A stretch of DNA of 64,000 bases from Chlorobiota bacterium (GCA_028287785.1 JAQBOZ010000007.1:271393-335392), one strand, 5' to 3'. Shown: positions 29,988 to 61,477, counted from the stretch's first letter. Notes: generated from the letters alone by a model not told the origin. Numbers and translations: made by a program.

Positions 29988-30941
29988 ATGAAGGTTGCCT
30001 GTATCGTATCGATACTCATGCTGATGCACACGGTATGCCATTCACAGAACTTCCCCGACCGGATGATCAGTTACGATCCCCTGGCCGATCACCGGCCGGA
30101 TACGGCGGACTTCACCTGGCTGAGCGGGGCAAGGCTCCACGCCGAGTTTTCCCGCTATTCGAACGGCAGCGGCTCATCGCACCGCTGGAACGCGAAGACC
30201 GGGGGAATGGTGGAGATTGCCCGCTGGGATTCCACCTGGAGCATCGCGGTGGCCGGGACCACGGAGATCATCATCGATCCCCATAACGATATCTCCTTCA
30301 ACCCGCGCGCGATCCAGTGGGAGGAGGGAATCCTGGTCTCCTGCCGCCTCTCCCACGACGCATCTCTTCAGTTCGGCGGAATGCAGCGGTGCAAGCATGA
30401 TATCGACAATCTTGAGCCGGCGCAGGAGAGCGGCAGCGTGGAGGAGCGGACGCTGATCTTCAGCAGCGCCACCGTCCGCGCGCTCTTCCATCCCCGTCCC
30501 CTCATCCCCGGCAGCAACCTCCTCTACGGCGCCCTCGCCATCCGCGACGAGATCTACGTCCATATCCTCGACAACAGAATCGCCGGAACCGCCGATGCCG
30601 GTGGCCGAAGCCTTGAAACGATGTTCAATACGACCGTGGTGACGGGGCGGCTCGATCTTCGCCCCCCCGATGCCCGCTACGGGGTTCACCTGGGGGCCAG
30701 CTTCATGGTAAGCCTCTTCGGCGATGCTCCGGGCACGGGACACAACCTCTCCAACCCGATCGCCCTTGGCTCGATCCCATTTCTGGAGCTGGGGCTCGAT
30801 CTCTTCAACCCGGCCGGCGGAAACCTCACCATCTTCGCCAGGGGCGAATGGCAGCGCGACGCCGCGATCCTCCCGAAACCGGCGGCGGCATCGCTCGCGA
30901 TGTTCGGGATACGCTTCAGCGATTTCGGGACGATGTGGTGA
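29988..30941 (+). CDS. secreted hypothetical protein (possible outer-membrane beta-barrel)
   Basis: Signal peptide MKVACIVSILMLMHTVCHS, alternating hydrophobic beta-strand pattern, C-terminal aromatic residue (..FGTMW). Confidence 0.5.
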   Translation: MKVACIVSILMLMHTVCHSQNFPDRMISYDPLADHRPDTADFTWLSGARLHAEFSRYSNGSGSSHRWNAKTGGMVEIARWDSTWSIAVAGTTEIIIDPHNDISFNPRAIQWEEGILVSCRLSHDASLQFGGMQRCKHDIDNLEPAQESGSVEERTLIFSSATVRALFHPRPLIPGSNLLYGALAIRDEIYVHILDNRIAGTADAGGRSLETMFNTTVVTGRLDLRPPDARYGVHLGASFMVSLFGDAPGTGHNLSNPIALGSIPFLELGLDLFNPAGGNLTIFARGEWQRDAAILPKPAAASLAMFGIRFSDFGTMW

Positions 30942-30958
30942 TCGTCACCATGTGACCG

Positions 30959-32380
30959 TCACCGCGCCAGCACCACGAACTCCGTCCTCCGGTTCTTCTG
31001 GCGACCCTCATCCGTCTCGTTGGTGGCGACCGGAAGGGAGAAGCCGAACCCTCTGGAGCGGACGCGGTCCTGGGGAATGCCCAGCGCGACCAGCGCGTCC
31101 CGGACGGCGGCGGCGCGGGCCTCGGAGAGCTTCTGGTTGTACTCCTCGGTCCCCTTTGAATCGGTATGCCCCCGCACCTCGATCTTCAGCCTGGGATGAT
31201 CCTTCATCGCCGACGCCAGCGCCGCAATCGACTCCTGCGATTCCGGGCGGAGGGTGGACATGTTGTAGTCGAAGTAGATCTTATCCAGCTTCACCGGGAC
31301 ATCGGAGGCGATATCGCCGGTGAGCGTGTTATAGGTGGCCGATGCCGCCACCTGCCTGGAGGAGTTCGGCGGGGTAAGCGTGAGCCGGGCGATATGCCTG
31401 CCGGCGACGTTCGGCGGCCTGTAGGTGACCAGATAATAGTTCCTGAGGCTCCGATAGATATCCTCGAAGGCGCTCTTCAGCTCGTCGTTCGTATACGTCT
31501 GATAGAACCGGCCGCCGGTGTAGGTGGAGATATCGGAGAGGACATCGCGGTTCACCGCGCCGAAGGCGATCGTGAAGATCGGGATGTTGTTGTCGCGGCA
31601 GAACTTGTACAGCTCGGAGGCGGGAATGGTGCTGGCGTTGTCCTCGCCATCGGTCAGCAGAACCACGGCGCGGGGATGATCGGCCGGGGATGATGCAACC
31701 TGATCGGCCCCGAGCTTGGCCGCCTGATAGATGGCGCTGTAGCTGCCGTATCCCTTCAGCCCCGTGCCGTTGAAGAGGGCCAGAAGATCGCTCTGCGAGC
31801 TGGTTGCCCCCAGCACGAGCTTCGGCGCGCGGTCGAACTTCACCACGGAGATCCGGTCCTGCGCCCGCTTCAGCCTGATAAACGCCGATGCCGCGTTCTC
31901 CACGCCGTTGATGTTGTTTCCCATCGTCCCGGAATAATCGAGCGCCAGGGAAAGCTCGTACGGTATCGCATCCTGATCGCTGAACTCCCGCACCGTGAAC
32001 TGATCGATCTTCCCGACCTTTCCATCATCGCCGATCTGCTCGGTCAGCCCGCTCCAGATCTTCCGGTAATCATCGTTCCCCTTGTAATACGGCGGGGCCA
32101 GATTGGTGACGATCTGCCCGCTGCTGTCGTAAACCCGCACATACAGGCTCACCGAATCGGGATAGGTCTCCGATCTGACCTTCCAGACATCGACGATCAT
32201 CTTTCCGGGATCGATCTGCTCGTACGATCTGGTGCCGACCATGTAGATCGGCTGCCTGTAGCCGGACGGCGCCGTCGGCTCGATCAGCGGAAGGATTGAT
32301 TTATCGAACGATCTGCAGCCGGCCCACAGAAGCGCGCCAAGGAGAAGAAACCGGATATCGGAGAGAGAACGTTGATTCAT
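30959..32380 (-). CDS. vWA domain + OmpA C-terminal domain lipoprotein
   Basis: Lipobox LLWAGC, vWA MIDAS (DYSGTM...), C-terminal OmpA peptidoglycan-binding motif (TDSKGTEEYNQKLSEARAAAVRDAL). Paralogue of the 45245-46759 gene. Confidence 0.75.
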   Translation of the reverse strand: MNQRSLSDIRFLLLGALLWAGCRSFDKSILPLIEPTAPSGYRQPIYMVGTRSYEQIDPGKMIVDVWKVRSETYPDSVSLYVRVYDSSGQIVTNLAPPYYKGNDDYRKIWSGLTEQIGDDGKVGKIDQFTVREFSDQDAIPYELSLALDYSGTMGNNINGVENAASAFIRLKRAQDRISVVKFDRAPKLVLGATSSQSDLLALFNGTGLKGYGSYSAIYQAAKLGADQVASSPADHPRAVVLLTDGEDNASTIPASELYKFCRDNNIPIFTIAFGAVNRDVLSDISTYTGGRFYQTYTNDELKSAFEDIYRSLRNYYLVTYRPPNVAGRHIARLTLTPPNSSRQVAASATYNTLTGDIASDVPVKLDKIYFDYNMSTLRPESQESIAALASAMKDHPRLKIEVRGHTDSKGTEEYNQKLSEARAAAVRDALVALGIPQDRVRSRGFGFSLPVATNETDEGRQKNRRTEFVVLAR

Positions 32381-38006: not shown

Positions 38007-39677
38007 TCACTTCACCAGCATCATCCTGCCGGTTGCCCCCGCGTTCCCATCCACGCCGAGACGGTAGAGATAGGCGCCAGCCGGAAGATCGCTCCCGTCG
38101 AACTCCACCTGCTGCTCGCCGGCATCACGATGCTCATCCAGCACGGTCCGCACCCGGCGTCCCAGCCGGTCGAACAGCCCGATCGTCACATGCCCCGCCC
38201 GCTCCATCCTGAAGCCGATCGTGGTATGCGAGGAGAACGGATTGGGAGCGTTCGCCAGCCGCATCGCCGATGCCGTGGCAGGATCGTACGCCACGCCGTT
38301 CGCCGGATCGAACACCTGCTGCGACGGCAGCGATTCGTTGAGGAGATCGACCGTGAGCATGGAATCATCCCCCGCCAGGACGAAGGTGAGATACGATGTC
38401 GCGAAGTTCCCGCTGCTCCCCCCCGTCAGCAGAGGCGATGGGGATGTCTGCCCCGGATGATAGACATCCAGCTTCATCGTCCCACGGGGAACGGAGATGA
38501 AATTGTTGTGCGCCAGAAACTCCACGGTGGTATCCATGACCGGCGTGGTCGCATCGGCGGGCGCATAGAGCCTTACCCTGGCGTTGGGAAGGAAGCTGGC
38601 GGCGTTCGCCACCCTGACGAAGAGCGATTCCGCGGCGTTTCCCGGCACGGTCGCCGGCGCGGTCAGAAGCATGCCGGTGGGGGCGCCATCCTGGAGCTTC
38701 GTCAGGATCACGGTGAAATCGGAATCGTTGCGGAGCCGGACCACCTGATGATAGATCTCCAGCCCCTCGTTGAACGGCGTGAACTTGACCAGGGCCGTAT
38801 CGGCTCCGAACGGGCCGAACTTCTCGGACGCGGAGCGATAGTGAAGATCGTGCGTCTTCGGCTGCCCGTCGATGTAGAGGTCCAGGCTCTGAAGCTTCTT
38901 CCCGTTCGCCGTCGTCTGCCGCCACGCGTGCATCACGCGAAGCGATGGAAGCAGCCCGCCTCCGGTAACGCCCTTCAATGGCACCAGCGGGCCGGCATCC
39001 GGCTGCTCGCCGCTCAACACGTAGACCTTCAGGTCCGCCGCGTTTGTGCCGGTCACGATCAGCGTCATGATCCCGCCATTGACGAACGGGGCTATCACCT
39101 TGGCGACCGGCGTCTTCTTTCCCGCCTCCGTGAAGATCACCGGAAGCGCGGCCGCCCTCACAGTGATGAAGGGGGAAAACCCGTCGGGGGTCAGCCCGGC
39201 GGTGAAGACCGCGGAGTCGGTGGAGCCGACGTAGACATCGAAGGATGTCTGGATGGTGCTGGCATTGAAGATGCGAAGGAGCGACATTCCGTCGGGCGCG
39301 CGCTGCGTCCGCATCCGCTCCAGCACCGCCATCCGTGGCTGCACGGCGGTGCCGTAGGCGATCGCGGTGTACTCGATGTTGGAGGCTCCGGCGATATCAC
39401 GGTTCAGAATCGCCCCGCCAAGGCCCGCGCCGGTCGGCGAGACCTTCACGTTCAACGTCCCTTCCGGCAGCTTCTTGGCGATTGCCGAGGCCGATTCGAA
39501 CGGGACGGTGGAGGGGGACGGATCGTTGTTGAAGAAGATATCGGCCTTCGGAACCCCACCGATCAGATGGACTCCGCGAAAATCGAAGGTCTGCCCATAT
39601 GCCGCCCCGGCGACCAGCAGCAGCACCAGCAGGAGCGCGGCCCGGCGGCAGAAGAAAGTAACATCACTCACGATCAT
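38007..39677 (-). CDS. secreted DUF4397-like repeat protein with T9SS C-terminal sorting domain
   Basis: Signal peptide, internal repeated ~120-aa modules, C-terminal ...NAPNPFSSHTTIGFRM...AGAYLYRLGVDG...GRMMLVK (type A T9SS CTD). Confidence 0.7.
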   Translation of the reverse strand: MIVSDVTFFCRRAALLLVLLLVAGAAYGQTFDFRGVHLIGGVPKADIFFNNDPSPSTVPFESASAIAKKLPEGTLNVKVSPTGAGLGGAILNRDIAGASNIEYTAIAYGTAVQPRMAVLERMRTQRAPDGMSLLRIFNASTIQTSFDVYVGSTDSAVFTAGLTPDGFSPFITVRAAALPVIFTEAGKKTPVAKVIAPFVNGGIMTLIVTGTNAADLKVYVLSGEQPDAGPLVPLKGVTGGGLLPSLRVMHAWRQTTANGKKLQSLDLYIDGQPKTHDLHYRSASEKFGPFGADTALVKFTPFNEGLEIYHQVVRLRNDSDFTVILTKLQDGAPTGMLLTAPATVPGNAAESLFVRVANAASFLPNARVRLYAPADATTPVMDTTVEFLAHNNFISVPRGTMKLDVYHPGQTSPSPLLTGGSSGNFATSYLTFVLAGDDSMLTVDLLNESLPSQQVFDPANGVAYDPATASAMRLANAPNPFSSHTTIGFRMERAGHVTIGLFDRLGRRVRTVLDEHRDAGEQQVEFDGSDLPAGAYLYRLGVDGNAGATGRMMLVK

Positions 39678-45244: not shown

Positions 45245-46759
45245 ATGACGAGATCCGTACAGCATGCGCTTCTTCTCTTCGGCACCATCTTTCTGTGGCT
45301 GTCGTTGACAGGTTGCCCGCAGAACCTGGTGAAGATGGCCGACGAGATTCTGCCGCCGAAGGACTACAAGCCGATCTACATGACATCGGCCGTTCCGTTC
45401 GATTCACTGATCCGGCAATATAGAACCGTCACCGGCCCCGTCACCGCATGGAAAAGCCAGCGGGTGGCCGATTCCACCGGCGCGATCGCCTGGCAGCGCC
45501 AGGGCCCGCTCACGATGGATATCCGCAAGGTGGACGACAGCCGGTATCCGGATGAGGTGGAGCTGCGCGCGTTCATCTACGATACCACCGGCCGTTTCGT
45601 GATGGGGCTTGCCCCGCCCTACTCCACCGGTAACTGGCGCGCCCGCTGGCCCCGGCTGGTGGACTCCTGCTCCGGGGCCGCCGTGCCGATCGACAGCTTT
45701 ACCGTCACCGAGGTCCGGCAGGATCGCCGCGAGCCGTACGCGATATCCTTCGTCCTTGACCAGTCCGGATCGATGGGGGACGAGAAGGTCCGCAAGCTCC
45801 GCACTGCGTTGAGCCGCACCCTCAGGATCATCAAGAAAGGTGATATGATCGCCACGGTGAAGTTCGGCAGCAAGTGCCTTGTGGATGTCCCGCTCACCGA
45901 TGACAGCGTCCGGTTCCGCAGGGAGTTTCAGGTGGAGAATCTGCAACCGCCGGGAGGGGGAGGAACGGCGCTGTACGACGCGGGCATCGTCGGGATCGAG
46001 CAGGTGGCGAACGCGCCGGTCGGCTACAAGCGCGCCATGATCCTCTTCACCGATGGCTTCAACGGCCAGTCCGATGCCACGCTCGCGGACGTGCAGCGGG
46101 CGGCGCGGGAGAAGAACGTCACCATCTACACCGTCGCCTACGGGCAGGCGGACGAGGAGGTGATGCGGACGATGGCGGCCTATACCGGCGGCAGGATGTA
46201 CAGGATCTACTCCAACAGGGAGTTCCCCTACGTCTTCGCCGATATCTATCGCGGCCTGAACAATTACTACAGGATCACCTACCGCCCGCCGCTCTGCAAA
46301 GGGGTCCATACCGCCACCGCCGCGGTCTCCATCCCGGAGCTTGGCTACAGCCCCCTCCTGGCCGACGGGCGCTACGACCGCTCCCTCTTCACGCCGTACG
46401 ATCCCGTCGGCTCCATCGCGATGGTCAGCATCGAGTTCGATTACGACAAGGCCACCATCCGCTCGGAATCCGCGCCCAGGGTGACGGAGGTCGCGGAGGC
46501 ACTCCGCGCCAACCCGGCGATGGAGCTGGAGATACGCGGGCATACCGACGATCGCGGCGGCGATGAGTACAACATGAAGCTCTCCGAGGATCGCGCGCGC
46601 GCCGTTGCCGACGCGCTGGTGACGCTCGGAATCGATCGGAAGCGGATGACCGTCGTCGGCTTCGGAAAGACGCGGCCGCTGGTCCCGAACGATTCCGAGG
46701 AGAACCGGAAGAAGAACAGGAGGACGGAGTTCGTGATCACCAGCCAGGGGGAGAAATGA
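45245..46759 (+). CDS. vWA domain + OmpA C-terminal domain lipoprotein (paralogue of 30959-32380)
   Basis: Lipobox LSLTGC, vWA MIDAS DQSGSM, C-terminal ...HTDDRGGDEYNMKLSEDRARAVADAL...NRRTEF. Confidence 0.75.
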   Translation: MTRSVQHALLLFGTIFLWLSLTGCPQNLVKMADEILPPKDYKPIYMTSAVPFDSLIRQYRTVTGPVTAWKSQRVADSTGAIAWQRQGPLTMDIRKVDDSRYPDEVELRAFIYDTTGRFVMGLAPPYSTGNWRARWPRLVDSCSGAAVPIDSFTVTEVRQDRREPYAISFVLDQSGSMGDEKVRKLRTALSRTLRIIKKGDMIATVKFGSKCLVDVPLTDDSVRFRREFQVENLQPPGGGGTALYDAGIVGIEQVANAPVGYKRAMILFTDGFNGQSDATLADVQRAAREKNVTIYTVAYGQADEEVMRTMAAYTGGRMYRIYSNREFPYVFADIYRGLNNYYRITYRPPLCKGVHTATAAVSIPELGYSPLLADGRYDRSLFTPYDPVGSIAMVSIEFDYDKATIRSESAPRVTEVAEALRANPAMELEIRGHTDDRGGDEYNMKLSEDRARAVADALVTLGIDRKRMTVVGFGKTRPLVPNDSEENRKKNRRTEFVITSQGEK

Positions 46760-47565
46760 TAACGCGAACAAATCATCGAACCGGATCGATCCCCGGCAAC
46801 CCGCCCGGATGGGGCCTGCTCCCGTTGAAGCTCCGCCCGCTGTTTCTGCTGCTGGCGCTCCTCCTCCTCCCCGGCGCGTTTGCATTCGCCGGCATCACCG
46901 TCGATACAACGCGCGGCCTGGTGGGGGAACATCTCCGGGTCAGAATCATCATCCCTCCCGGCGGCCCGGCCGCGGGGCCGGCATTGTTGCGGGGGACGCT
47001 GCGGCTGAGCAACCCGACGGTCTTCTTCCCCGACTCCCTGATCGCGGCGCGGGCCGGCGCGATTACCGGCTACTCGCTCACGGCGCGGAAGGACTCGATC
47101 TACGATTTCTCCATCTCCCTCCTCCGCGATACCGCCATGGCCGACACGATCTACCTTGCGGGCGAGGCGCTGGCCGGCTCCGACTCGGTCTGCGTGATCC
47201 TCCTGAACGATATCACGCTGGACGGCGCACCACGGGAAAGCGCGAGCGGCGCGGTCCTCACCCGATCGGTCGGCCCGCCGCTCCCCTACGTCCGGTTCGC
47301 GATACTCGATCAGAACTATCCGAACCCGGCGCGCCAGGGAAGCCCCACGACATGGGCATACCGGATCGACAGGCTCTCCGATGTCCGCTTCTACTTCTAC
47401 ACCGTGACGGGAGCGGAGCTGTTCGTGGCCGACCTGGGGACGCAGCCGATCGGGCCGCACACATTCATCTACACCCCCGGCATCGACGTGCCGTGCGGGG
47501 TCTATCTGGTTCGTCTGGTGACCAATTCCGGTTTCGCCGACAAAGTGATGCACATCGTACGATAA
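46756..47565 (+). CDS. T9SS C-terminal sorting-domain protein
   Basis: Signal peptide, C-terminal ...DQNYPNPARQGSPTTWAYRI...TGAELFVADLGTQPIGPHTFIY...GVYLVRLVTNSGFADKVMHIVR. ATGA overlap with the upstream gene. Confidence 0.6.
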   Translation: MITRTNHRTGSIPGNPPGWGLLPLKLRPLFLLLALLLLPGAFAFAGITVDTTRGLVGEHLRVRIIIPPGGPAAGPALLRGTLRLSNPTVFFPDSLIAARAGAITGYSLTARKDSIYDFSISLLRDTAMADTIYLAGEALAGSDSVCVILLNDITLDGAPRESASGAVLTRSVGPPLPYVRFAILDQNYPNPARQGSPTTWAYRIDRLSDVRFYFYTVTGAELFVADLGTQPIGPHTFIYTPGIDVPCGVYLVRLVTNSGFADKVMHIVR

Positions 47566-48551
47566 TGAATCAACATCTACCCTGGCTCCGGCTGCATGCC
47601 GCATGGATACTGGCGTTGCTGGTAGTCTCCGCCTGCGGCGCGCGCGCCCAGGATGCCGACACGACGTGGGATGATCTCGGGCTCGATCCCAAGGGATTCA
47701 CGTTCGATGATGAGACGATCGGCCATGTGTCGCGCGGATGGTTTCCGCAGGCATATGCCGGGTATACGCTGATGTACAGCGGGCCGTTCGGCGACACGTT
47801 CGACGCGGCTACGGATATCCGCCCGAGGGCGTTCCAGCCCACCACCGCCCCCTTCTCGTGGCATAACCCGTACGAGGCGGATGAGCGGAAGATCTACCAG
47901 CCGAACAAGGACAAGGAGGAGGACGATGGTTATCCCAGCACCAGCTATGACGACTACTCCCTCCAGTTTCTCTACAACCTGCCGATGCCGGCCGTCGTCA
48001 GGCTTGGCGCCGGCCTCCAGGTGACGCAGGGGATGCTCTTTTCGGTCGACAACTCCCGGCACTACCTTTCGATCGGCGGATTGCGACAGCCGTTGAAGGA
48101 GGTCGGGGTGGCGTATCTGAAGCAGTACTCGCTGGCCGGGACCGTGGGGCTGGACATCCCCATCTATGGCGCGTTCATCAAGACCGAGGCGCTCTCGGTA
48201 TCATCGTACTATTATCTCTTCGGCGGCTACAGCTTCGCCTACGCGATCTCCAGCAAGGGGACGCAGTATGAGCAGATCGCGAACGCCAAGCAGGCGATCC
48301 GCTACGGCAACGGCTCCGACACCGCCACGCTGATCGACAAGCGGACGTTCGACGGATTGCAGCGGCTGCGACGGTCGATCGACGTGGGGGTGGGGTGGAA
48401 CGTGATGGGGGAGGACTTTCTGGCGCTCGGCGTGGAGGGGTTTGTTTCGATCCCGCAGACATCGCTGCTGGATGATTCCGACTGGAAGCAATATTTTGTG
48501 GGGCTTCGCATTTCTCTGGGAATCCACTGGCTGCCGAAGAAATCGAAGTGA
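47565..48551 (+). CDS. secreted hypothetical protein (possible outer-membrane beta-barrel)
   Basis: TAATG stop/start overlap with the upstream gene, signal peptide MNQHLPWLRLHAAWILALLVVSACGARAQ, Tyr/Gly-rich amphipathic strands. Confidence 0.55.
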   Translation: MNQHLPWLRLHAAWILALLVVSACGARAQDADTTWDDLGLDPKGFTFDDETIGHVSRGWFPQAYAGYTLMYSGPFGDTFDAATDIRPRAFQPTTAPFSWHNPYEADERKIYQPNKDKEEDDGYPSTSYDDYSLQFLYNLPMPAVVRLGAGLQVTQGMLFSVDNSRHYLSIGGLRQPLKEVGVAYLKQYSLAGTVGLDIPIYGAFIKTEALSVSSYYYLFGGYSFAYAISSKGTQYEQIANAKQAIRYGNGSDTATLIDKRTFDGLQRLRRSIDVGVGWNVMGEDFLALGVEGFVSIPQTSLLDDSDWKQYFVGLRISLGIHWLPKKSK

Positions 48552-48636
48552 TCCGAACCGGAGCGATCCGAACGGCGGCATCCCGCCCCCGTACGATCTC
48601 TTCTCATCCGAAATATTCCGGGATCATCCGTTGAGC

Positions 48637-49806
48637 ATGGATCGCCCCCTGAAGATAGCATTCGTCCATCCCGGCAACGCGCGCGATGTGCGGACCTGGT
48701 CAGGGACACTCTACTTTTCCAAAGCCTCGATCGAGCGGCATATCGGCACCGTGACCGATCTTACCCCGGCGCCCATCCGGCTGTTCCCCTATCAGGCGGC
48801 CCGGAAGCTGGTTCGCTCGATCTCCGGCAGGAACTACAGCTTCCACCACGATATGTCGCTCGCCCGCCGCTACGGGCGCTACTTCAGCAAACTTCTCGCG
48901 CGCGACCGGTACGATCTGATCTTCTGTCCGGGGGGAGCAAACACGCTCGCCTTCCTGGAAACCGATGTGCCGATCATCTACTACTCCGACGCAACGTGGC
49001 GCTCCGTCCGGAATTTCTACTCCGACTACACCAATGTGATCTCCCGGACCGCGCGCGGCGGCGACGAGCTGGAGCGGCTGACGCTGGAGCGATCATCGAT
49101 CATCCTCTATCCCTCCTACTGGGCGGCCGCGTCGGCGACCGAGGATTACGGGATCGATCCCGGCAGAGTCCATGTCACGTTCCTGGGGGCCAACCTCATC
49201 AACCCGCCGGCGCGGGAGGCGGTGCTCCCCAGGAAGATCGGAACGCCGATCCGGCTTCTGATGGTCGGCGTATCGTGGGAGATCAAGGGGGGGGCGATTG
49301 CCCGCGAAGCCCTGGTCAGGCTCCTGGAGATGGGGCTGGATGCCGGGCTGACGGTGGTGGGATGCACCGCACCGGCCGGCGCGGAGCACCCGAGGATGAC
49401 GGTGATTCCATTCCTCAACAAGCAGATCCCCGAGGAGCGGGGGCTGTTCGAGCGGCTCTGGCAGGAGGCTGATTTCTTTATCCTTCCCACCCGGTTCGAG
49501 GCTGCCGGCCTTGTCTTCTGCGAGGCATCAGCCTACGCCCTTCCCGCCATCACGACCGATATCGGCGGGATTCCCTCGCTGGTGCGGGAGGGGAGAAACG
49601 GTCATACGCTGCCGCTGGAAGCCGGTGGCGGGCGGTACGCGGAGGTGATCGCGGAGATCGCCCGCGATCCGGAGCGCTACCAGGCGCTCTGCCGCAGCAG
49701 CCGGGAGGAGTTCGAAACGCGCCTGAACTGGGATGCCTGGGGGAAAAGCCTGGCGGCGATTATCGGGGATACTTTCCCCGCATTCCGCGGACGGCTCCCC
49801 GATTGA
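48637..49806 (+). CDS. family 4 (GT-B) glycosyltransferase
   Basis: C-terminal EX7E-type motif region (...FFILPTRFEAAGLVFCEASAYALPAITTDIGGIPSLV...). Confidence 0.8.
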   Translation: MDRPLKIAFVHPGNARDVRTWSGTLYFSKASIERHIGTVTDLTPAPIRLFPYQAARKLVRSISGRNYSFHHDMSLARRYGRYFSKLLARDRYDLIFCPGGANTLAFLETDVPIIYYSDATWRSVRNFYSDYTNVISRTARGGDELERLTLERSSIILYPSYWAAASATEDYGIDPGRVHVTFLGANLINPPAREAVLPRKIGTPIRLLMVGVSWEIKGGAIAREALVRLLEMGLDAGLTVVGCTAPAGAEHPRMTVIPFLNKQIPEERGLFERLWQEADFFILPTRFEAAGLVFCEASAYALPAITTDIGGIPSLVREGRNGHTLPLEAGGGRYAEVIAEIARDPERYQALCRSSREEFETRLNWDAWGKSLAAIIGDTFPAFRGRLPD

Positions 49807-49877: not shown

Positions 49878-49952
49878 GGCGGGTATAGCTCAGTTGGTTA
49901 GAGCGCCTGATTGTGGCTCAGGAGGTCGTGGGTTCAAGTCCCATTACTCGCC
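49878..49952 (+). tRNA. tRNA-His(GTG): tRNA-His (anticodon GTG) with encoded G-1
   Basis: Hand fold: G-1, acceptor GCGGGTA/TACTCGC, D-arm GCTC-AGTTGGTTA-GAGC, anticodon stem CCTGA/TCAGG with loop TTGTGGC, T-arm GTGGG-TTCAAGT-CCCAT, discriminator C. Confidence 0.85.
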
Positions 49953-49962
49953 CGAACGAATC

Positions 49963-54916: not shown

Positions 54917-54987
54917 CCGGGCGGCCGGCAATCGGCTGGAACGAGTGCCGGGATCATCCCGGAAACGCGATCATATCCTGAAAGCCC

Positions 54988-57948
54988 ATGCACGTTGTTC
55001 GCTACCTGGCCCTCCTCTGGCTCCTCCCCATCGCGGCCCTGGCCCAGGGCTCGAACATGGTTTCCAATCCCGGCTTTATCGGCACCTATGGAACCGGCAT
55101 CGGCCCCGATAATATCCCCCCGTGGCTCCCCGCCTGCGGCACCCCTGACGCGCGCGCCGGCAACGGCTGTTCCGATACCGGCTATATCGCGATGTGGGGG
55201 AACAAGTTCGTCGGGGAGGCGATCAAGGAAAAGCTGTTCATCCGCATCAGGAAGGACAGCCTCTACACCTGCTCCCTCTGCATGCGCGCCAGCCCCGATG
55301 TCGGCAGGTACTTCCGCGCCCGCGTCGTGGCGTTCAGCACCACTCCCCGGTTCGACAATTTCCACTGGGATATTCAGGAGCCGCAGGTTGCCCTGATCGG
55401 ATCGGCCGGCACCGCCAGCCTGAACTGGCGCACCCTCACATTTCCACCGTGGAAGGCGCCGGCTGACTACGACAGCATCGCGATCAACGTCGAGAACGAT
55501 TCCGCCGACTACACCAACCCGGCCACCGTATCGTGGGGGAATATCGACGGGGTGAATCTGGAGAAGGTGTCGAAGTGCATCCTGTCGGTGGACTCGTTCA
55601 CCGTCCGCTGCAACGGCTTCGATCAGCAGGGACACCGGCTCTACCTCTACTCGGTAAACGCGAGAAGCGATATCGATGGCTTTATCGTCGCATCCACGCC
55701 GAACGGACAGGCGACCATCTCCCAGAACACGATCCCCGCGGCCACGGAGGTGAACATCACCGGCACGATCACCGGCACCAGCGGGACAAATGATCCGCTC
55801 TGCCTCTACGTTTCCCTTATCACCGGAAACGGCCTCCTCTGCCGCGATTCCATCTGCATCCCCTCGCCACTGCCGGCGCCCCTCAACAGCCGCGACACGA
55901 TCTGCACCGGCGGAGCCATCACGCTCGATGCGCCCGACGGGATCGCCTGGCGCTGGAGGCCGGCCACGGGACTGAGCTGCGCGGACTGCCAGCACCCGAC
56001 GGCATCGCCCGATGTCTCGACCAGGTATCTGGTGGAAACCACCGGCCGGCAGGGATGCGTCTCGGTCGATACCGCCGATCTCCAGGTGGCCCCGCTGCCG
56101 GTCATCACCGCCGGAACCAAGGTGACGATATGCCTGGGAGGAAGCACGGAGTTGTTGGTATCCGGCGGGGCAGCCTATCGCTGGAGCCCGGCGACGGGAT
56201 TGAGCTGCACGACGTGCCCCAACCCCATCGCCTCACCGACCGAGCCGACGGTGTACACGGTAACGGTGACAAGCGCCGCCGGCTGCTCCGCGAACGCCTC
56301 GATAACCGTGTTGATCGATTCCGCGACGGCGATGATCCGATCGATTTCGAGGGATACCACCATCTGCGCCGGAGAGGGCGCGCACCTCATCGCGAGCGGC
56401 GCCGATCGCTATCAGTGGTCCCCCGCCACCGGGTTGGGCTGCGTCGACTGCGCCGATCCGATCGCGTCGCCGGCCGTCACGACCCGATATACCTGCACGT
56501 TCATCAGCGTCGCCGGCTGCTCCGCGCGGGATTCCGTGCTGGTGACCGTGGCGCCACCGCCGGCCGCGGACGCCGGGGCCGATACAACCATCTGCGCCGG
56601 AGGAGAAGCGGCGCTGAGCGGGTCCGGCGGCACCGGATACAACTGGTCCCCCGCCGATGCAATCAGTTGCACCGACTGTAGAAATCCGGTGGCCCGCCCC
56701 CTGATCACAACCACCTATACACTCCGCGTGACAAACGCGGCAGGCTGCTCCGCGACCGACTCCGTTACCGTGCATGTCCTCCCCCTCCCCTCCGCCGACG
56801 CCGGCCCCGATGTCGCGGCCTGCCCCGGAGAGAGCATCACCCTCTCGGCATCGGGCGGAACAACGTATGCCTGGTCCCCCGCCGAAGGGCTCAGCTGCGC
56901 CGACTGTCAAAGCCCGGTCGCCACGCCGTTGCGGACGACGGTCTATCATCTGACGGCAATCAACGCCGCCGGCTGTGCCGCAACCGACAGTGTTACGGTA
57001 AACCTCCGCGCGGCTCCGACGGTGACCGCTTCCGGCGATACCGATATCTGCCCGGCCCGCCCGGCCCGGCTCCATGCGTCGGGCGCGTCGGTCTACCGCT
57101 GGAGACCGGCCACCGCCCTTTCCTGTACGGACTGCCCCGATCCCGTGGCAACGCCGCTGGTCACCACCACCTATGTGGTTTCGGGGACCGACGCTCATGG
57201 CTGCACCGGGGAGGACACGGTGATCATCCGCGTCGGCGATGGAACGCGAACCATCACGGCGCATATCGATCGCGACCACCACCTTCTGCCGGGAAGCATC
57301 ATCGCGATTCCCATCATCCTGGATTCCGCGGCGGACGGCGCGGCAACGCTGGAGATCGCGCTGGGTTACGAACGACGCTTCCTCCGCCTCAAACGGATTT
57401 CGACCGATGGAACGCTCCTCGACGGATGGGCCATCACCACCCTGACCGATTCGCTCGGCGCCGTCCGCGTCAGGCTGGATGCCCCACCGGGACGCACGCT
57501 GCGGGGACGGGGAACGCTGGCGACGATCGATCTGGCGGGCTATCTGGCCGATACGGTGGAATCGGAACTGCCGTTCAGCATCACCCTCCCGGCCGGCTCG
57601 TGCGATCGCATCACCGCGCTGCCGGGGCATATCAGGATCGATTCGATCTGCGGGCTGAACCTCCGGCTGATCCGTGTGACCGTCGGCAACTACTCCCTCG
57701 CGGGAAATCGCCCCAACCCCTTCAACCCATCCACCGAGATATCCTTCTCGCTCGGCCTTGACGGGCCCACAACGCTGGCGATCTACGACGCCGCCGGCAA
57801 TGCCATCACCACCCTCATCGACACCTGGCTCCGGCCCGGAAGCTACACCGTCGCGTGGGATGCCTCCGGGCAGCCCTCCGGCATCTACTACTACAGGATG
57901 ACCTCCGGCGCCTGGAGCGGCCAGGGAAGGATGCTGCTTGTGAAATAA
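54988..57948 (+). CDS. large secreted protein with 8 tandem ~47-aa Cys-containing Ig-like repeats and T9SS C-terminal sorting domain
   Basis: Signal peptide; repeat consensus ICxGxxxxLxASGGxxYxWSPAxGLSCxDCxxPxAxPxxTTxYxVTxxxxxGCxxxDSVxVxV spanning ~55880-57240; C-terminal ...GNRPNPFNPSTEISFSL...GIYYYRMTSGAWSGQGRMLLVK. Confidence 0.75.
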   Translation: MHVVRYLALLWLLPIAALAQGSNMVSNPGFIGTYGTGIGPDNIPPWLPACGTPDARAGNGCSDTGYIAMWGNKFVGEAIKEKLFIRIRKDSLYTCSLCMRASPDVGRYFRARVVAFSTTPRFDNFHWDIQEPQVALIGSAGTASLNWRTLTFPPWKAPADYDSIAINVENDSADYTNPATVSWGNIDGVNLEKVSKCILSVDSFTVRCNGFDQQGHRLYLYSVNARSDIDGFIVASTPNGQATISQNTIPAATEVNITGTITGTSGTNDPLCLYVSLITGNGLLCRDSICIPSPLPAPLNSRDTICTGGAITLDAPDGIAWRWRPATGLSCADCQHPTASPDVSTRYLVETTGRQGCVSVDTADLQVAPLPVITAGTKVTICLGGSTELLVSGGAAYRWSPATGLSCTTCPNPIASPTEPTVYTVTVTSAAGCSANASITVLIDSATAMIRSISRDTTICAGEGAHLIASGADRYQWSPATGLGCVDCADPIASPAVTTRYTCTFISVAGCSARDSVLVTVAPPPAADAGADTTICAGGEAALSGSGGTGYNWSPADAISCTDCRNPVARPLITTTYTLRVTNAAGCSATDSVTVHVLPLPSADAGPDVAACPGESITLSASGGTTYAWSPAEGLSCADCQSPVATPLRTTVYHLTAINAAGCAATDSVTVNLRAAPTVTASGDTDICPARPARLHASGASVYRWRPATALSCTDCPDPVATPLVTTTYVVSGTDAHGCTGEDTVIIRVGDGTRTITAHIDRDHHLLPGSIIAIPIILDSAADGAATLEIALGYERRFLRLKRISTDGTLLDGWAITTLTDSLGAVRVRLDAPPGRTLRGRGTLATIDLAGYLADTVESELPFSITLPAGSCDRITALPGHIRIDSICGLNLRLIRVTVGNYSLAGNRPNPFNPSTEISFSLGLDGPTTLAIYDAAGNAITTLIDTWLRPGSYTVAWDASGQPSGIYYYRMTSGAWSGQGRMLLVK

Positions 57949-58141
57949 TCTCTTCAGTCTCGTGATGAATTGCAGTGATCGTGTGTCCTGATCCCCATGG
58001 GCCGCGTTTCCCGCGCGTCCCACGGCGGACCGGCCCGTGCGCCGTAACGTTCCGCCCGTGGAATCATTCCTGGCTATGACCGGCGAACGCCATCGGTCAG
58101 GAACGGCTCCCCGCCGCGGCACTCTCAATTCATCCGAGGCA

Positions 58142-61100
58142 ATGCTCATGAGGCTGATTTCATCTGATCCGGCAGGCGGCGGGAAGAACCTGCTTCCGCT
58201 CACCATCGCGCTCATCATCGCCATCATTGCGCTGGTTCCGGGCGTTCTCCGCGCGCAGGGGGGGACATCATCGGACGCTCCGCCGAGCGGGGAAACCGTG
58301 GAACGCGCGCTCTCCTCGCTGCCGGTCGTCTTCCGCAGGAACGCGGGGCAGTGGGAAGATCCGATTCTCTACCAGGGACGCTCCGCGGGGGCCAATGTCT
58401 ACTTTATGCGGGACGGGCTCAGCTTCGGCTATACGCGTGAGATAGAGGGAGAGGACGAGGAGGGAGAGGGTGATGAGGGGAGCCACGGCGATGAGTCGGA
58501 TGCATCGGAATTCCTGGTCTGGAACCTCACGTTCGCCGGGATGAATCCCAATGCGCGCGTCGTCTCCGAAGGGGAACACGAGGGGAACACGAACTATCTC
58601 CGCGGCGAGGATTTCAGCAGACACCTGACCCATGTGCCGGAGTATTCGCGCCTCTGGTACAGGGATATCTACCCCCATATCGATCTCCGCTACTACGGCA
58701 CCGGAGCGGCGTTGAAGTACGATTATATCGTGGCGCCGGAGGGGAATATCGCCGATATCAGGATGGCGTGCAGCGGCATCGAGAAGCTGGCGATCAACGC
58801 AAAGGGACAGCTCGAAATCACCAACGCCTGGGGAACCGTGGCCGAGGAAGTGCCCTTCACCTATCAGGTGATCAACGGCGCCAGACGCGAAGTGGCGTCG
58901 CGCTATCGGATGGTGAACGATACCACGTTCGGCTTTGCGATCACCGGCGGCTACGATCATGCGGAGCCGATCGTGATCGACCCGATCATGCTGGCGTGGT
59001 CCACCTTCGTCGGCGGGACGGGGGATGAACAGATGGGATATATCCGCGATATCGCCGTGGATAAGAAGGGGAATGTCTACGGCACCGGCTGGTATACCGC
59101 CGGGTTCCCGACAACGCCCGGCGTCTACGGCAAAGGCGCGTTCGGCCCCGACTACAATTTCTTCCACGACTACTACAACGATGTCTTCGTCTTCAAGCTG
59201 GACGCCACAGGGACAAAGCTGATCTACTCCACCTATATCGGCGGCTCATCGAACGAGCTGGGGCTCAGGCTCAGGGTGAACGATGCGGGAGAAGCGTTTG
59301 TTACCGGGCAGACCTTCACATCCGGGGGCGGGTTCGGGCGGAACAACTTTCCGATCACCGCCAACGCGCTGTCGAAAACGTATGGCGGCAACTTCGATCT
59401 CTTCGCCCTCCGCCTGAGCGCCGACGGGACAAAGCTGATCTACTCCACCTACATCGGCGGTGATGATTACGAGGACGTTGGGGGGATCGCGATCGATCAG
59501 CAGGGATCGCTCTATATCTGCGGCTCCACATCCAGCAGCAATTTTCCGACGACGGCCGGCGCCATCCGCCGCACCCCCTACGGCAACTCGGATATCTTCG
59601 TCTCCAAACTCGCCGACGATGGAAGCAGGATGATCTTCTCCACCTATATCGGTCAGAAGGGGAATGACAGCGCGTACGATATGGCGCTCGACCGCCAGGG
59701 AAATATCTACGTTTCAGGGTGGACAAGCTCCACCAATTTCCCCGTCACCGCCGGAGCCTACGCAACCCGCTACGGCGGCGCGGGGGCGGGAGTTGTGCTG
59801 AAGCTGGCCCCCGATGGGGGACGCATTATCTACGCAACCTTTATCCAGTCCGCCAACGACGACAAGAACGTGATCGCGGTTGACCGCGACGGGAGCGCCG
59901 TTGTTGCCGGGACCACCAACGACCGGAACTTCCCCACCACCGCGAAGGCGTATTCGCGAACGCTGAAGGGGGCCTCCGATGCGTTCGTGGTAAAACTGGA
60001 TAGCCTTGGGGCGACGGCGCGCTACTCCACGCTCCTTGGCGGAAGCGGCAATGAACAGCCCGAGGGAATCGCCCTTGCCGCCGGCGGAGAGGTCTTTATC
60101 TCCGGAAGATTGATCTTCCCGAACGCCCCCTCCACCCGGAATTTCAAGGCCGATTTCCCCGTGACCAGATGCGCGCTGGAACCGGATTACCGCTCGCAGA
60201 TGGATTTCAGTTTGCTGTGGGACGGCTTCGTCAGCCGCCTGAGCGCCGACGGGGCGCGGCTTGAATACTCCACCTATCTCGGCGGCAAGAACAATGATTA
60301 CTACGCCAGAGTCATATTCGATACGGTCGGCGGCAGGCAGGATCTCTATATCTCGATAACAACCCATTCCCCCGATTTCGTCACCACGCCGGGATCGTTT
60401 CAGCCGGTGAAGCTGAACACTGCCCGCGATCAGCCGGTGGTGATGAAGCTTAGTCCCATCTACCGTCCCGCGTTCACGCACCGGGCCGATAACTGCGGCG
60501 GGGATCGATTCTTCGATTCCACCATCGCCGACTGCATCTGGACCGACAGCACATGGACGCCGGGAAGCTGGCGATGGGATTTCGGCGATGGATCGACATC
60601 GACCGATCGCAACCCCATCCATTCCTACACGCGTCCCGGCGACTACGCGGTAACGCTGGTGACCGGAGCGCCGTACGACTCGATAACGACCGTCGTTCAT
60701 ATCGCCCCGGCGGGCTCCATCGCACCCGCCGCCGCCGCCCATATCGCGACCGACAACCGGGCGATGCCTGGGGATTCCGTGACGATTCCTGTGGTGCTCG
60801 ATACCCCCGCCGATACGCTCGGCTGCCGCCGGATAGCCTTCTCGATCCTCTATGACAGCAACATGATGAGCCTGGCAAATGCCACCCCCACCAGGCTCCC
60901 CTCGATGCTCAAGGGGACGCTTGTCGAGGGATGGACCCCGATGGTAACGGCCGATCGCCCCGGCTTCTTCTCCCTCACGCTGGATGCTCCGCTCTCGATT
61001 CAGCCGCTGAAGGGGAAGGGAAATATTCTCGAGCTGCGGTTTTCCACATTTATCAAGGGGGCGGGCGACGCGCAGACCGATTCGATCTGGCGATCGCCGC

Positions 61101-61477
61101 TGCCGTTCGATCTTACGCTCTACACGGCGCAGTGCGCGCCGGTTGCCACCGTTCCGGGGGAACTCCGATTCGAGCTCTGCGGCATGCGGGAACGCCTGAT
61201 CATCGCCACGATGTCGAAGTATGCTCTGAGGCCCAATGCCCCCAACCCGGTCCACTCCGCCACGGATATCGAGTTCTCGCTCGGCCTGGATGGCTATACA
61301 ACGCTGGCGGTCTACAATGCCCGCGGGGAAAAAGTGGAGACGCTGGTGGATGGATACCTGGAGCCCGGAAGCTACGCGGCCCACTGGGATGGAACCCGTC
61401 ATCCCTCCGGCGTCTATCACTACCGGCTCTCCTCCGGCACCTGGAGCGCGGAGGGGAGGATGCTGCTGACGAAATGA
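58142..61477 (+). CDS. secreted SBBP beta-propeller-repeat protein with PKD domain and T9SS C-terminal sorting domain
   Basis: Repeated YSTYIGGxxxExGxxIAxDxxGNxYVxGxTxSxNFPTTxGA (SBBP) units x~9, PKD-like WDFGDGSTSTDRNPIHSYTRPGDYAVTLV, C-terminal ...RPNAPNPVHSATDIEFSL...GVYHYRLSSGTWSAEGRMLLTK. Start at MLMRLISS (TM/signal anchor follows). Confidence 0.75.
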   Translation: MLMRLISSDPAGGGKNLLPLTIALIIAIIALVPGVLRAQGGTSSDAPPSGETVERALSSLPVVFRRNAGQWEDPILYQGRSAGANVYFMRDGLSFGYTREIEGEDEEGEGDEGSHGDESDASEFLVWNLTFAGMNPNARVVSEGEHEGNTNYLRGEDFSRHLTHVPEYSRLWYRDIYPHIDLRYYGTGAALKYDYIVAPEGNIADIRMACSGIEKLAINAKGQLEITNAWGTVAEEVPFTYQVINGARREVASRYRMVNDTTFGFAITGGYDHAEPIVIDPIMLAWSTFVGGTGDEQMGYIRDIAVDKKGNVYGTGWYTAGFPTTPGVYGKGAFGPDYNFFHDYYNDVFVFKLDATGTKLIYSTYIGGSSNELGLRLRVNDAGEAFVTGQTFTSGGGFGRNNFPITANALSKTYGGNFDLFALRLSADGTKLIYSTYIGGDDYEDVGGIAIDQQGSLYICGSTSSSNFPTTAGAIRRTPYGNSDIFVSKLADDGSRMIFSTYIGQKGNDSAYDMALDRQGNIYVSGWTSSTNFPVTAGAYATRYGGAGAGVVLKLAPDGGRIIYATFIQSANDDKNVIAVDRDGSAVVAGTTNDRNFPTTAKAYSRTLKGASDAFVVKLDSLGATARYSTLLGGSGNEQPEGIALAAGGEVFISGRLIFPNAPSTRNFKADFPVTRCALEPDYRSQMDFSLLWDGFVSRLSADGARLEYSTYLGGKNNDYYARVIFDTVGGRQDLYISITTHSPDFVTTPGSFQPVKLNTARDQPVVMKLSPIYRPAFTHRADNCGGDRFFDSTIADCIWTDSTWTPGSWRWDFGDGSTSTDRNPIHSYTRPGDYAVTLVTGAPYDSITTVVHIAPAGSIAPAAAAHIATDNRAMPGDSVTIPVVLDTPADTLGCRRIAFSILYDSNMMSLANATPTRLPSMLKGTLVEGWTPMVTADRPGFFSLTLDAPLSIQPLKGKGNILELRFSTFIKGAGDAQTDSIWRSPLPFDLTLYTAQCAPVATVPGELRFELCGMRERLIIATMSKYALRPNAPNPVHSATDIEFSLGLDGYTTLAVYNARGEKVETLVDGYLEPGSYAAHWDGTRHPSGVYHYRLSSGTWSAEGRMLLTK

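Follow-up and report, generated by a model that had tools for sequence, protein, structure and literature searches.

In Porphyromonas gingivalis, PorE, PorP and PG1035 are found in one complex (PMC9143113). In Flavobacterium johnsoniae, five operons (Fjoh_3952-3951-3950 and four similar ones) each encode a homologue of PorE, a type B substrate of the T9SS (type IX secretion system) and an SprF-like shuttle, and static complexes anchored to the cell wall were proposed for their products; type A cargo of the Bacteroidota studied so far uses the general PorV shuttle and is attached to anionic lipopolysaccharide (A-LPS), without a dedicated barrel (PMC12618676). A stretch of 64,000 nucleotides from a Chlorobiota bacterium (GCA_028287785.1, JAQBOZ010000007.1:271393-335392; hereafter the window, with 62% G+C) contains three consecutive genes, designated A, B and C, which resemble such a cassette in outline. 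The genes and their immediate neighbours are:

45245-46759, plus strand: gene A, vWA+OmpA lipoprotein of 504 amino acids (open reading frame (ORF) map and Pfam)
46756-47565, plus strand: gene B, predicted small T9SS cargo of 269 amino acids, in which a cohesin-like domain lies between the Sec signal and a type A C-terminal sorting domain (CTD)
47565-48551, plus strand: gene C, predicted secreted protein of 328 amino acids, resembling an outer-membrane beta-barrel, without a family
48637-49806, plus strand: gene D, GT4 glycosyltransferase of 389 amino acids (the ATG at 48637 is the most likely start)
49879-49953, plus strand: tRNA-His (GTG), found by ARAGORN; end of the gene run, without functional link

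The ORF map, the junction sequences and the tRNA scan bore out the positions of genes, overlaps and tRNA given in a preliminary description of the window. The TGA of A and the ATG of B overlap as ATGA; B and C share one nucleotide in TAATG; the GT4 gene, recognized by Pfam, follows C after a spacer of 85 bp, ends at 49806 and is succeeded by the tRNA.

The likeness to the PorE/PorP/type B cassette consists in three genes for an OmpA_C outer-membrane lipoprotein, an outer-membrane barrel of about 320-340 amino acids and a T9SS-secreted protein, and in the pairing of distant C genes with PorE-like lipoproteins. The differences concern all parts: A has a vWA domain, whereas PorE has TPR, beta-propeller and CRD domains; the cargo carries a type A CTD here and a type B CTD there; the gene order is lipoprotein-cargo-barrel here, but cargo-barrel-lipoprotein in the described system. 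A canonical cassette, which can serve as a reference for the known architecture, was found in a related "Chlorobiota" metagenome-assembled genome (MAG; locus L079, 4624-10417). It encodes a type B cargo of 853 amino acids (TIGR04131, 55 bits), a PorP/SprF protein of 336 amino acids (TIGR03519, 148.6 bits, cut-off 90.55) and, as third gene product, a PorE/CHU_0125-like OmpA lipoprotein of 740 amino acids (309-361 bits).

Conservation of A-B-C and of the gene preceding C

Loci centred on A were collected from species-representative genomes and from contigs coding for database homologues, and the triad was sought in them with tblastn and a hidden Markov model (HMM) of the C family; metagenomes were scanned with a C profile derived from the closer alignment A1. 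The closest homologues of A, B and C (93%, 88% and 95% identity, respectively) are those of Candidatus Kapaibacterium/Kapabacteria MAGs. A-B-C occurs in one order and on one strand at 14 loci of species genomes (L001/2, L003=L012, L004, L008-L011, L013-L015, L019, L024, L025 and L064), where the identity to A ranges from 70% down to 34% and that to C falls to 28%. Eight further triads were obtained by the scan with the C profile (L090, L091, L094, L095, L097, L099, L100 and L105), and B-C was also present on two truncated metagenome contigs. The triad loci, about 20 in all, are Kapabacteria/Ignavibacteria-like, and at every one of these vWA-type loci B lies between A and C. The B-C junction is tight as well: of 15 loci, 9 have the ATG of C at -4 or -1 relative to the stop of B, and 4 others have it at +1 to +6. 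The distance between A and B varies from -4 to about +150.

Gene D does not share this conservation. L001/2, L009 and L010, 3 of about 14 orthologous loci, are the only ones with D immediately behind C; in L011 it lies at +6.4 kb, in L014 at +1.9 kb, and from the other triad loci it is missing. Synteny thus ruled out D as a member, and the "four-gene module" of the preliminary description has to be reduced to a conserved unit of three genes, A-B-C, to which GT4 and tRNA-His are mere neighbours.

A second arrangement was detected in metagenomes, at five loci with distant C genes (31-34% identity), where neither B nor a vWA gene nor a CTD gene is nearby. A gene for a protein with PD40, CarboxypepD_reg and OmpA domains stops 0-1 nucleotides before the ATG of C in all five. 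These two-gene variants are:

L098, 3903-6900: PorE-like gene and C
L101, 1-2419: PorE-like gene and C
L102, 4126-6954: PorE-like gene and C
L103, 4233-6864: PorE-like gene and C
L104, 4119-6885: PorE-like gene and C

The PorE-like ORFs match the T9SS_PorE model NF052230 with E values of 1e-35 to 1e-39, which is under the family cut-off, at model positions 277-597 (L098, L101, L103) or in two stretches (L102, L104); they match CHU_0125_OmpA, a model for outer membrane integrity, equally well and likewise below its cut-off. Two of the five proteins, those of L102 and L104, show a clear lipobox. All C genes with readable upstream sequence are preceded by a gene for an OmpA_C wall-binding protein. 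From the triads and the five PorE-like loci together it follows that C always comes after such a gene, the remainder of whose product is interchangeable, being either vWA or PorE-like.

Predicted properties of the proteins A, B and C

Protein A possesses a lipobox (LTGC), a beta-rich region N-terminal of the vWA domain, a Pfam VWA domain at residues 167-322 (nucleotides 45743-46210; 69.4 bits) and a Pfam OmpA domain at residues 398-492 (nucleotides 46436-46720; 81.5 bits), as expected from its earlier designation as a vWA+OmpA lipoprotein. In an alignment of 11 family members, G23 and C24 of the lipobox are invariant, as are D172, S174 and D270 of the metal ion-dependent adhesion site (MIDAS), of which S176 and T241 are kept in at least 90%; in A', a second vWA-OmpA protein of the window (see below), the third Ser is replaced by T. 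The motif DxSxS ... T ... D of A is thus intact, as in a functional MIDAS. Also invariant is R431 G432 H433 T434 D435 ... R450 (RGHTD...N..LS..R) of the OmpA_C domain, and A can be predicted to be an outer-membrane lipoprotein with a C-terminal peptidoglycan-binding domain. It should be periplasmic, since a wall-binding domain at the C-terminus demands this location. Homologues of A numbered 370 at E<=1e-10, with Kapaibacterium best.

Membership of A in the PorE family was considered and rejected: A aligned with NF052230 only at positions 516-600 of 648, the OmpA part (75.9 bits, cut-off 600), and contains no TPR, propeller or CarboxypepD_reg domain, Pfam having found VWA instead. With Pal/Tol-Pal, YiaD, YfiB and PA1041 it shares the N-terminal outer-membrane lipid anchor and, at the other end, OmpA_C with the D/R residues that are canonical for peptidoglycan binding, and YiaD, Pal and YfiB were the best NCBIfam matches of its C-terminus (91-112 bits, all under the family cut-offs). 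The Pal-type tethers differ in that A has about 370 extra residues, including the MIDAS vWA domain, and in that the genes coupled to it code for a barrel and a T9SS cargo, not for TolB/TolA. Over their N-terminal beta-rich part, vWA and the segment behind it, A and A' align with the acidobacterial-type "VWFA-related" family TIGR03436 (A' at model positions 9-295, E 1e-20; A at positions 44-293, E 9e-18), with scores of 65-75 bits, under the cut-off of 81; that family, however, lacks OmpA_C, and no link of it to the T9SS has been described.

Other cargo genes were noticed beside more remote vWA-OmpA genes. In L017 (11932-16419), L020 (11797-16314) and L021 (2099-6862), a gene for a cargo of about 1500 amino acids with Sortilin-Vps10/BNR, PKD and Por_Secre_tail domains lies directly downstream on the same strand; the vWA-OmpA proteins of this branch are 40-48% identical to A, and the Sortilin cargo stands where B-C would be. 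In L042 (7125-11176), genes for a Por_Secre_tail protein of 247 amino acids, a putative O-mannosyltransferase similar to TMEM260 and a vWA-OmpA lipoprotein follow each other on one strand, the first thus being two genes upstream of the last, with a DUF6029 gene and a thioredoxin-like gene divergent and upstream; the same context was found in L047, L050-L053, L056-L058 and L061. The protein of 247 amino acids was discarded as a candidate homologue of B, having no homology to it beyond the CTD. Since the background of CTD genes in these loci is about one per 20-27 kb, such adjacencies are suggestive, not conclusive.

Protein B comprises a cohesin-like beta-sandwich at about residues 46-172 (nucleotides 46891-47271) and a type A CTD at about residues 184-269 (nucleotides 47305-47562), joined by a conserved linker, SIGPPLPYVRFA, in which P177 and Y178 are invariant and R180 is present in at least 90% of the sequences; the N-domain is likewise strongly conserved. 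Taken alone, B of the window scores under the cut-off of 23 with TIGR04183 (13 bits, E 0.079). The model was matched, however, by 13 of 15 orthologues (best E 1.3e-8), PF18962 by 7 of 15, and the weak matches to CHU_C (type B) were confined to 1 of 15. B also contains QNYPNP, the hallmark motif of the type A CTD, and within its homologue family of 66 clusters some members are named T9SS type A sorting domain proteins by PGAP. At the level of the family, B can therefore be regarded as a probable type A substrate; the preliminary description had called it a T9SS-CTD protein.

An AlphaFold2 model of B, built with database homologues, had a mean predicted local distance difference test (pLDDT) score of 88.7 and showed a helix at residues 24-45 (the signal peptide), followed by two beta-sandwiches, the C-terminal one of which has seven strands (pLDDT >90) and matches FlgD Ig-like domains weakly. 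The model is consistent with an N-terminal Sec signal and a CTD of Ig-like beta-sandwich fold. The best Foldseek matches of the N-domain were cohesins (2w1n, E 2e-8), although many Ig-like folds scored alike; with 6kgc and 2xdh the target-normalised template modelling (TM) scores were 0.56-0.57 and the root mean square deviation 4.7. Pfam detected no cohesin family match (PF00963) in the 15 orthologues. After removal of the CTD, about 130 residues of cohesin-like domain would remain, a very small T9SS cargo. The most distant homologues of B, with 34-35% identity, belong to the HR20 lineage (L087/L088 5261-6693, L089 5237-6693) and are not near A or C. Their genes overlap, as ATGA, the stop of a gene for a TPR+SPOR protein of about 250 amino acids, which is another peptidoglycan binder.

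Protein C starts with a signal peptide (cleavage site AxA-Q) and contains 6.4% Y and 9.5% G. Its AlphaFold2 model (pLDDT 80.8, predicted TM score 0.70) is all-beta with about 11 long strands, and the top Foldseek matches in the PDB were all outer-membrane barrels (Ail, OmpA, OmpW, OmpX, Legionella porins). The model thus points to a secreted, outer-membrane-barrel-like protein in the size range of about 300-340 amino acids, in agreement with the first designation of C as a Tyr/Gly-rich putative beta-barrel; a crude heuristic score for amphipathic beta-strands, which was also applied, did not separate barrels from soluble proteins. Conserved motifs are GWFP, QYxQIAxAK, IRYGNGxDT and an acidic loop, QPN.DEEEDDGYP (about residues 112-125), which is kept in the PorE-type loci too. 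The vWA-type copies of C have a longer acidic, LDPEDF-like N-terminal segment than the PorE-type copies; as a discriminator between the two types this extension was abandoned, the difference not being clean enough to serve as evidence. An exhaustive profile search of 1.84e9 representatives yielded 125 clusters at 50% identity for the C family. No match was found in Pfam and NCBIfam with 25 members (E<=10), nor in a PDB sequence search with C; this is a small, clade-restricted barrel family without a Pfam model or a solved relative. Both this family and the substitution of vWA for PorE are undescribed.

Possible function and competing explanations

On the observed domain content, gene overlaps, conservation of the triad and exchange of partners upstream of C we base a tentative reading, to which we give slightly less than an even chance: A, B and C would form a wall-anchored outer-membrane platform round a type A cargo, acting like PorE, PorP and their cargo, with non-homologous parts. 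The three genes would be one operon for an anchoring platform which spans the envelope. The lipid of A would hold it in the outer membrane's inner leaflet and its OmpA_C domain would bind peptidoglycan non-covalently, while the vWA domain with its MIDAS could provide a metal-dependent protein-binding site in contact with an acidic ligand, for which the conserved acidic N-terminal segment of C or its acidic loop are candidates. C, embedded in the membrane, would be the partner of this wall-binding lipoprotein. B would be exported via Sec and the T9SS and displayed on the surface, probably positioned by C.

Retention of type A proteins on barrels has a precedent in PorZ-PorQ and PorU-PorV, in which type A CTD proteins are kept on outer-membrane barrels of the T9SS attachment complex. 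By analogy, B could stay on a dedicated barrel, uncleaved and not linked to A-LPS. In contrast to these pairs, C is not specifically related to barrels of the FadL type (Foldseek probabilities 0.13-0.23), and the cohesin-like domain of B, with its approximately 130 amino acids, is neither an enzyme nor a beta-propeller protein. The Myxococcus proteins TraA and TraB offer a looser parallel: one operon encodes a surface protein, with a C-terminal tag for its sorting, and an outer-membrane protein with an OmpA_C wall anchor, a combination which is also encoded here. Sorting there is by MYXO-CTERM, here by the T9SS, and TraB fuses barrel and OmpA domain; the TraB model NF033763 matches only the OmpA part, with no homology outside that domain.

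Several points weigh against a platform of A, B and C. The contacts between A and C and between B and C, the topology in the envelope and the retention of B at the surface are inferred from the gene neighbourhood. Type A cargo travels via PorV to A-LPS in the species studied, and C may therefore be irrelevant to B. The resemblance of C to known barrels is weak (query-normalised TM scores of just 0.2-0.37), and its strand number and topology are uncertain. Nor is there a relation to the barrels of the described systems: PorP/SprF (TIGR03519/PF11751) was not among the matches of the 25 members in Pfam and NCBIfam, and profile-profile comparison by hhalign gave probabilities of 0.5% for a C profile of 42 sequences with the PorP/SprF protein of L079 (7200-8210) and of 0.3% for C with a PorQ-like protein. 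On these grounds, and because the linked substrate B is type A and not type B, C was rejected as a member of PorP/SprF. Genes like A, with 40-51% identity, occur without B or C nearby in L005, L006, L022, L026 and L062, so that A-like proteins function without B and C, and the vWA-OmpA family as a whole is tied to T9SS cargo by only about three independent events. The PorE/PorP analogy drawn in the preliminary description is independently supported by the position of PorE-like lipoproteins next to distant C genes, although C does not belong to PorP/SprF, nor A to PorE.

A wider version, which we regard as doubtful, sees in C a new barrel family that is the obligate partner of OmpA_C wall-binding lipoproteins in Kapabacteria and relatives; in the vWA version, C would be a cognate shuttle or anchor for a type A substrate, and through the MIDAS either the barrel or the transiting cargo would be linked to the wall. 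If C shuttles or anchors a type A substrate, this would be a counter-example to the view that PorV alone handles type A proteins. What is known of T9SS biology comes, to our knowledge, almost exclusively from Porphyromonas and Flavobacterium. Should the platform be confirmed, an uncultured, deep-branching lineage of the Fibrobacteres-Chlorobi-Bacteroidetes group would have reinvented the design of cargo, barrel and wall-binding lipoprotein, using non-homologous parts; the partner that binds the wall would be a module of vWA, PorE-like and possibly SPOR type, and a type A substrate, too, could have its own dedicated barrel. Roles are thereby proposed for three families which are now annotated "hypothetical", "OmpA family" or "VWA domain", and a barrel family of 125 clusters is defined. 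As a comparative finding in an uncultured lineage, it should have a modest immediate impact.

The strongest competing explanation, in our estimate possible though rather unlikely, is that A, B and C are co-transcribed and yet functionally independent, namely a Pal-like tether, an ordinary porin or channel and an A-LPS cargo handled by PorV/PorU, so that the operon would reflect co-regulation. PorV recognises all type A CTDs in the systems studied (PMC12618676), the best structural matches of C are generic small barrels and porins, and the solitary A-like genes mentioned above would agree with independent action; T9SS cargo genes are moreover frequent (the 64 kb of the window contain 4, and 1.5 Mb of related loci about 74), a sign that such cargo is dense in this genome. 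Co-regulation, however, usually preserves less than was found here, where order and tight junctions persist down to 34% identity in A and 28% in C. Also against independence, C was always found behind a gene for an OmpA_C lipoprotein, even one of different architecture, and B and C are two clade-restricted families which co-occur.

Less probable still, and in our opinion unlikely, is a core of lipoprotein and barrel only (A-C or PorE-like-C), a tether of the Tol-Pal/PorE type unrelated to secretion, with B as a lineage-specific passenger. In its favour, PorE itself was argued to be mainly a tether between outer membrane and peptidoglycan, and not a part of the T9SS (PMC12204202). The five PorE-like-C loci, which have neither B nor a CTD gene nearby, and the distant B homologues located away from A and C fit it. 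A mere passenger would hardly be expected between A and C at all of the approximately 20 vWA-type loci with its overlap to C conserved, nor with so conserved a linker (P177, Y178, R180) and N-domain. Outside the triad, the distant homologues of B are again coupled to a peptidoglycan-binding protein, and this TPR+SPOR coupling argues for a functional tie of B to wall-binding partners.

The second vWA-OmpA gene and other features of the window

A second pair of genes in the window had been taken for a partial copy of the same module:

30959-32380, minus strand: gene A', vWA+OmpA lipoprotein paralogue of 473 amino acids
29988-30941, plus strand: ORF for a secreted protein of 317 amino acids with signal peptide, convergent with A'

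The two genes converge, as described earlier, with 17 nucleotides between them, and A' is indeed paralogous to A (419 amino acids aligned at 37% identity, E 2e-89), with Pfam VWA and OmpA domains. Of 67 family loci, 35 resemble A' more closely than A, and B and C are missing from all of these; A' represents the more widespread, stand-alone branch of the vWA-OmpA family. The neighbour of A' is a different matter. BLASTP revealed no similarity between C and the 29988-30941 protein, and hhalign gave a probability of 0.4%, which disposed of the idea of a paralogous barrel; the protein had no Pfam and no PDB match. RCKHDIDNLE and ARGEWQR are strictly conserved in its four known copies, and the C-terminal residue is Trp; it may be an uncharacterised outer-membrane protein or an enzyme. 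Orthologues were found only in L030 and L031 (A' identity 66%) and in L038 (56%, at a distance of 2.7 kb); about 30 loci whose A'-like genes are more distant had none.

Two paralogous modules, A with C and A' with the 29988-30941 protein, are accordingly very improbable and largely refuted. In their favour are the genuine paralogy of A and A', the signal peptide of each neighbour and the retention of the second pair in L030 and L031, but the neighbours are unrelated, a convergent pair cannot be co-transcribed, adjacency is lost below about 56% identity of A', and all A'-type loci lack B and C. The "recurring pairing", from which an outer-membrane to peptidoglycan tether or T9SS accessory module had been deduced, thus fails as an argument, the two "barrels" being unrelated and the convergent pair conserved only in close relatives; the conclusion itself is partly supported by the triad at about 20 loci, by the PorE-like partner at five and by the agreement of this arrangement with the logic of the F. 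johnsoniae and P. gingivalis cassettes. In at least two other genomes A and A' are also about 13 kb apart on one contig (L014/L030 and L011/L031), which reflects local synteny among close relatives and not a functional pair. The gene order shared with L001 comprises ATP-grasp/citrate-lyase-like, DUF4397-CTD, Asp/Asn-tRNA ligase, MgtE, A-B-C, tRNA-His and GltX.

Other features: Gene D belongs to GT4 (GT-B fold, family 4) by its matches to Glyco_trans_1_4 (49.5 bits), Glycos_transf_1 (41.2 bits) and Glyco_transf_4 (36.2 bits), each of which exceeds the Pfam cut-off. Scans for promoters and terminators round both loci gave results at chance level only; the sigma-70 consensus is in any case probably unsuited to this lineage. 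The spacer between C and D opens with a direct repeat, GATCCGAAC, with copies at 48550-48558 and 48565-48573. Further CTD-type ORFs were detected with an ad-hoc HMM made from the CTD of B, at 38007-39677 (minus strand), 54982-57945 (plus strand) and 57992-61474 (plus strand); the first corresponds, by synteny with L001, to a DUF4397+Por_Secre_tail protein. The three lend indirect support to T9SS machinery being encoded in this genome. Several loci of Kapabacteria type (L009, L013, L014, L030, L035, L052, L057, L058 and L060) stem from MAG records labelled Alphaproteobacteria, Armatimonadota, Hyphomicrobiales, Bradyrhizobiaceae or Desulfobulbaceae, which are probably errors of binning or naming in the public entries.

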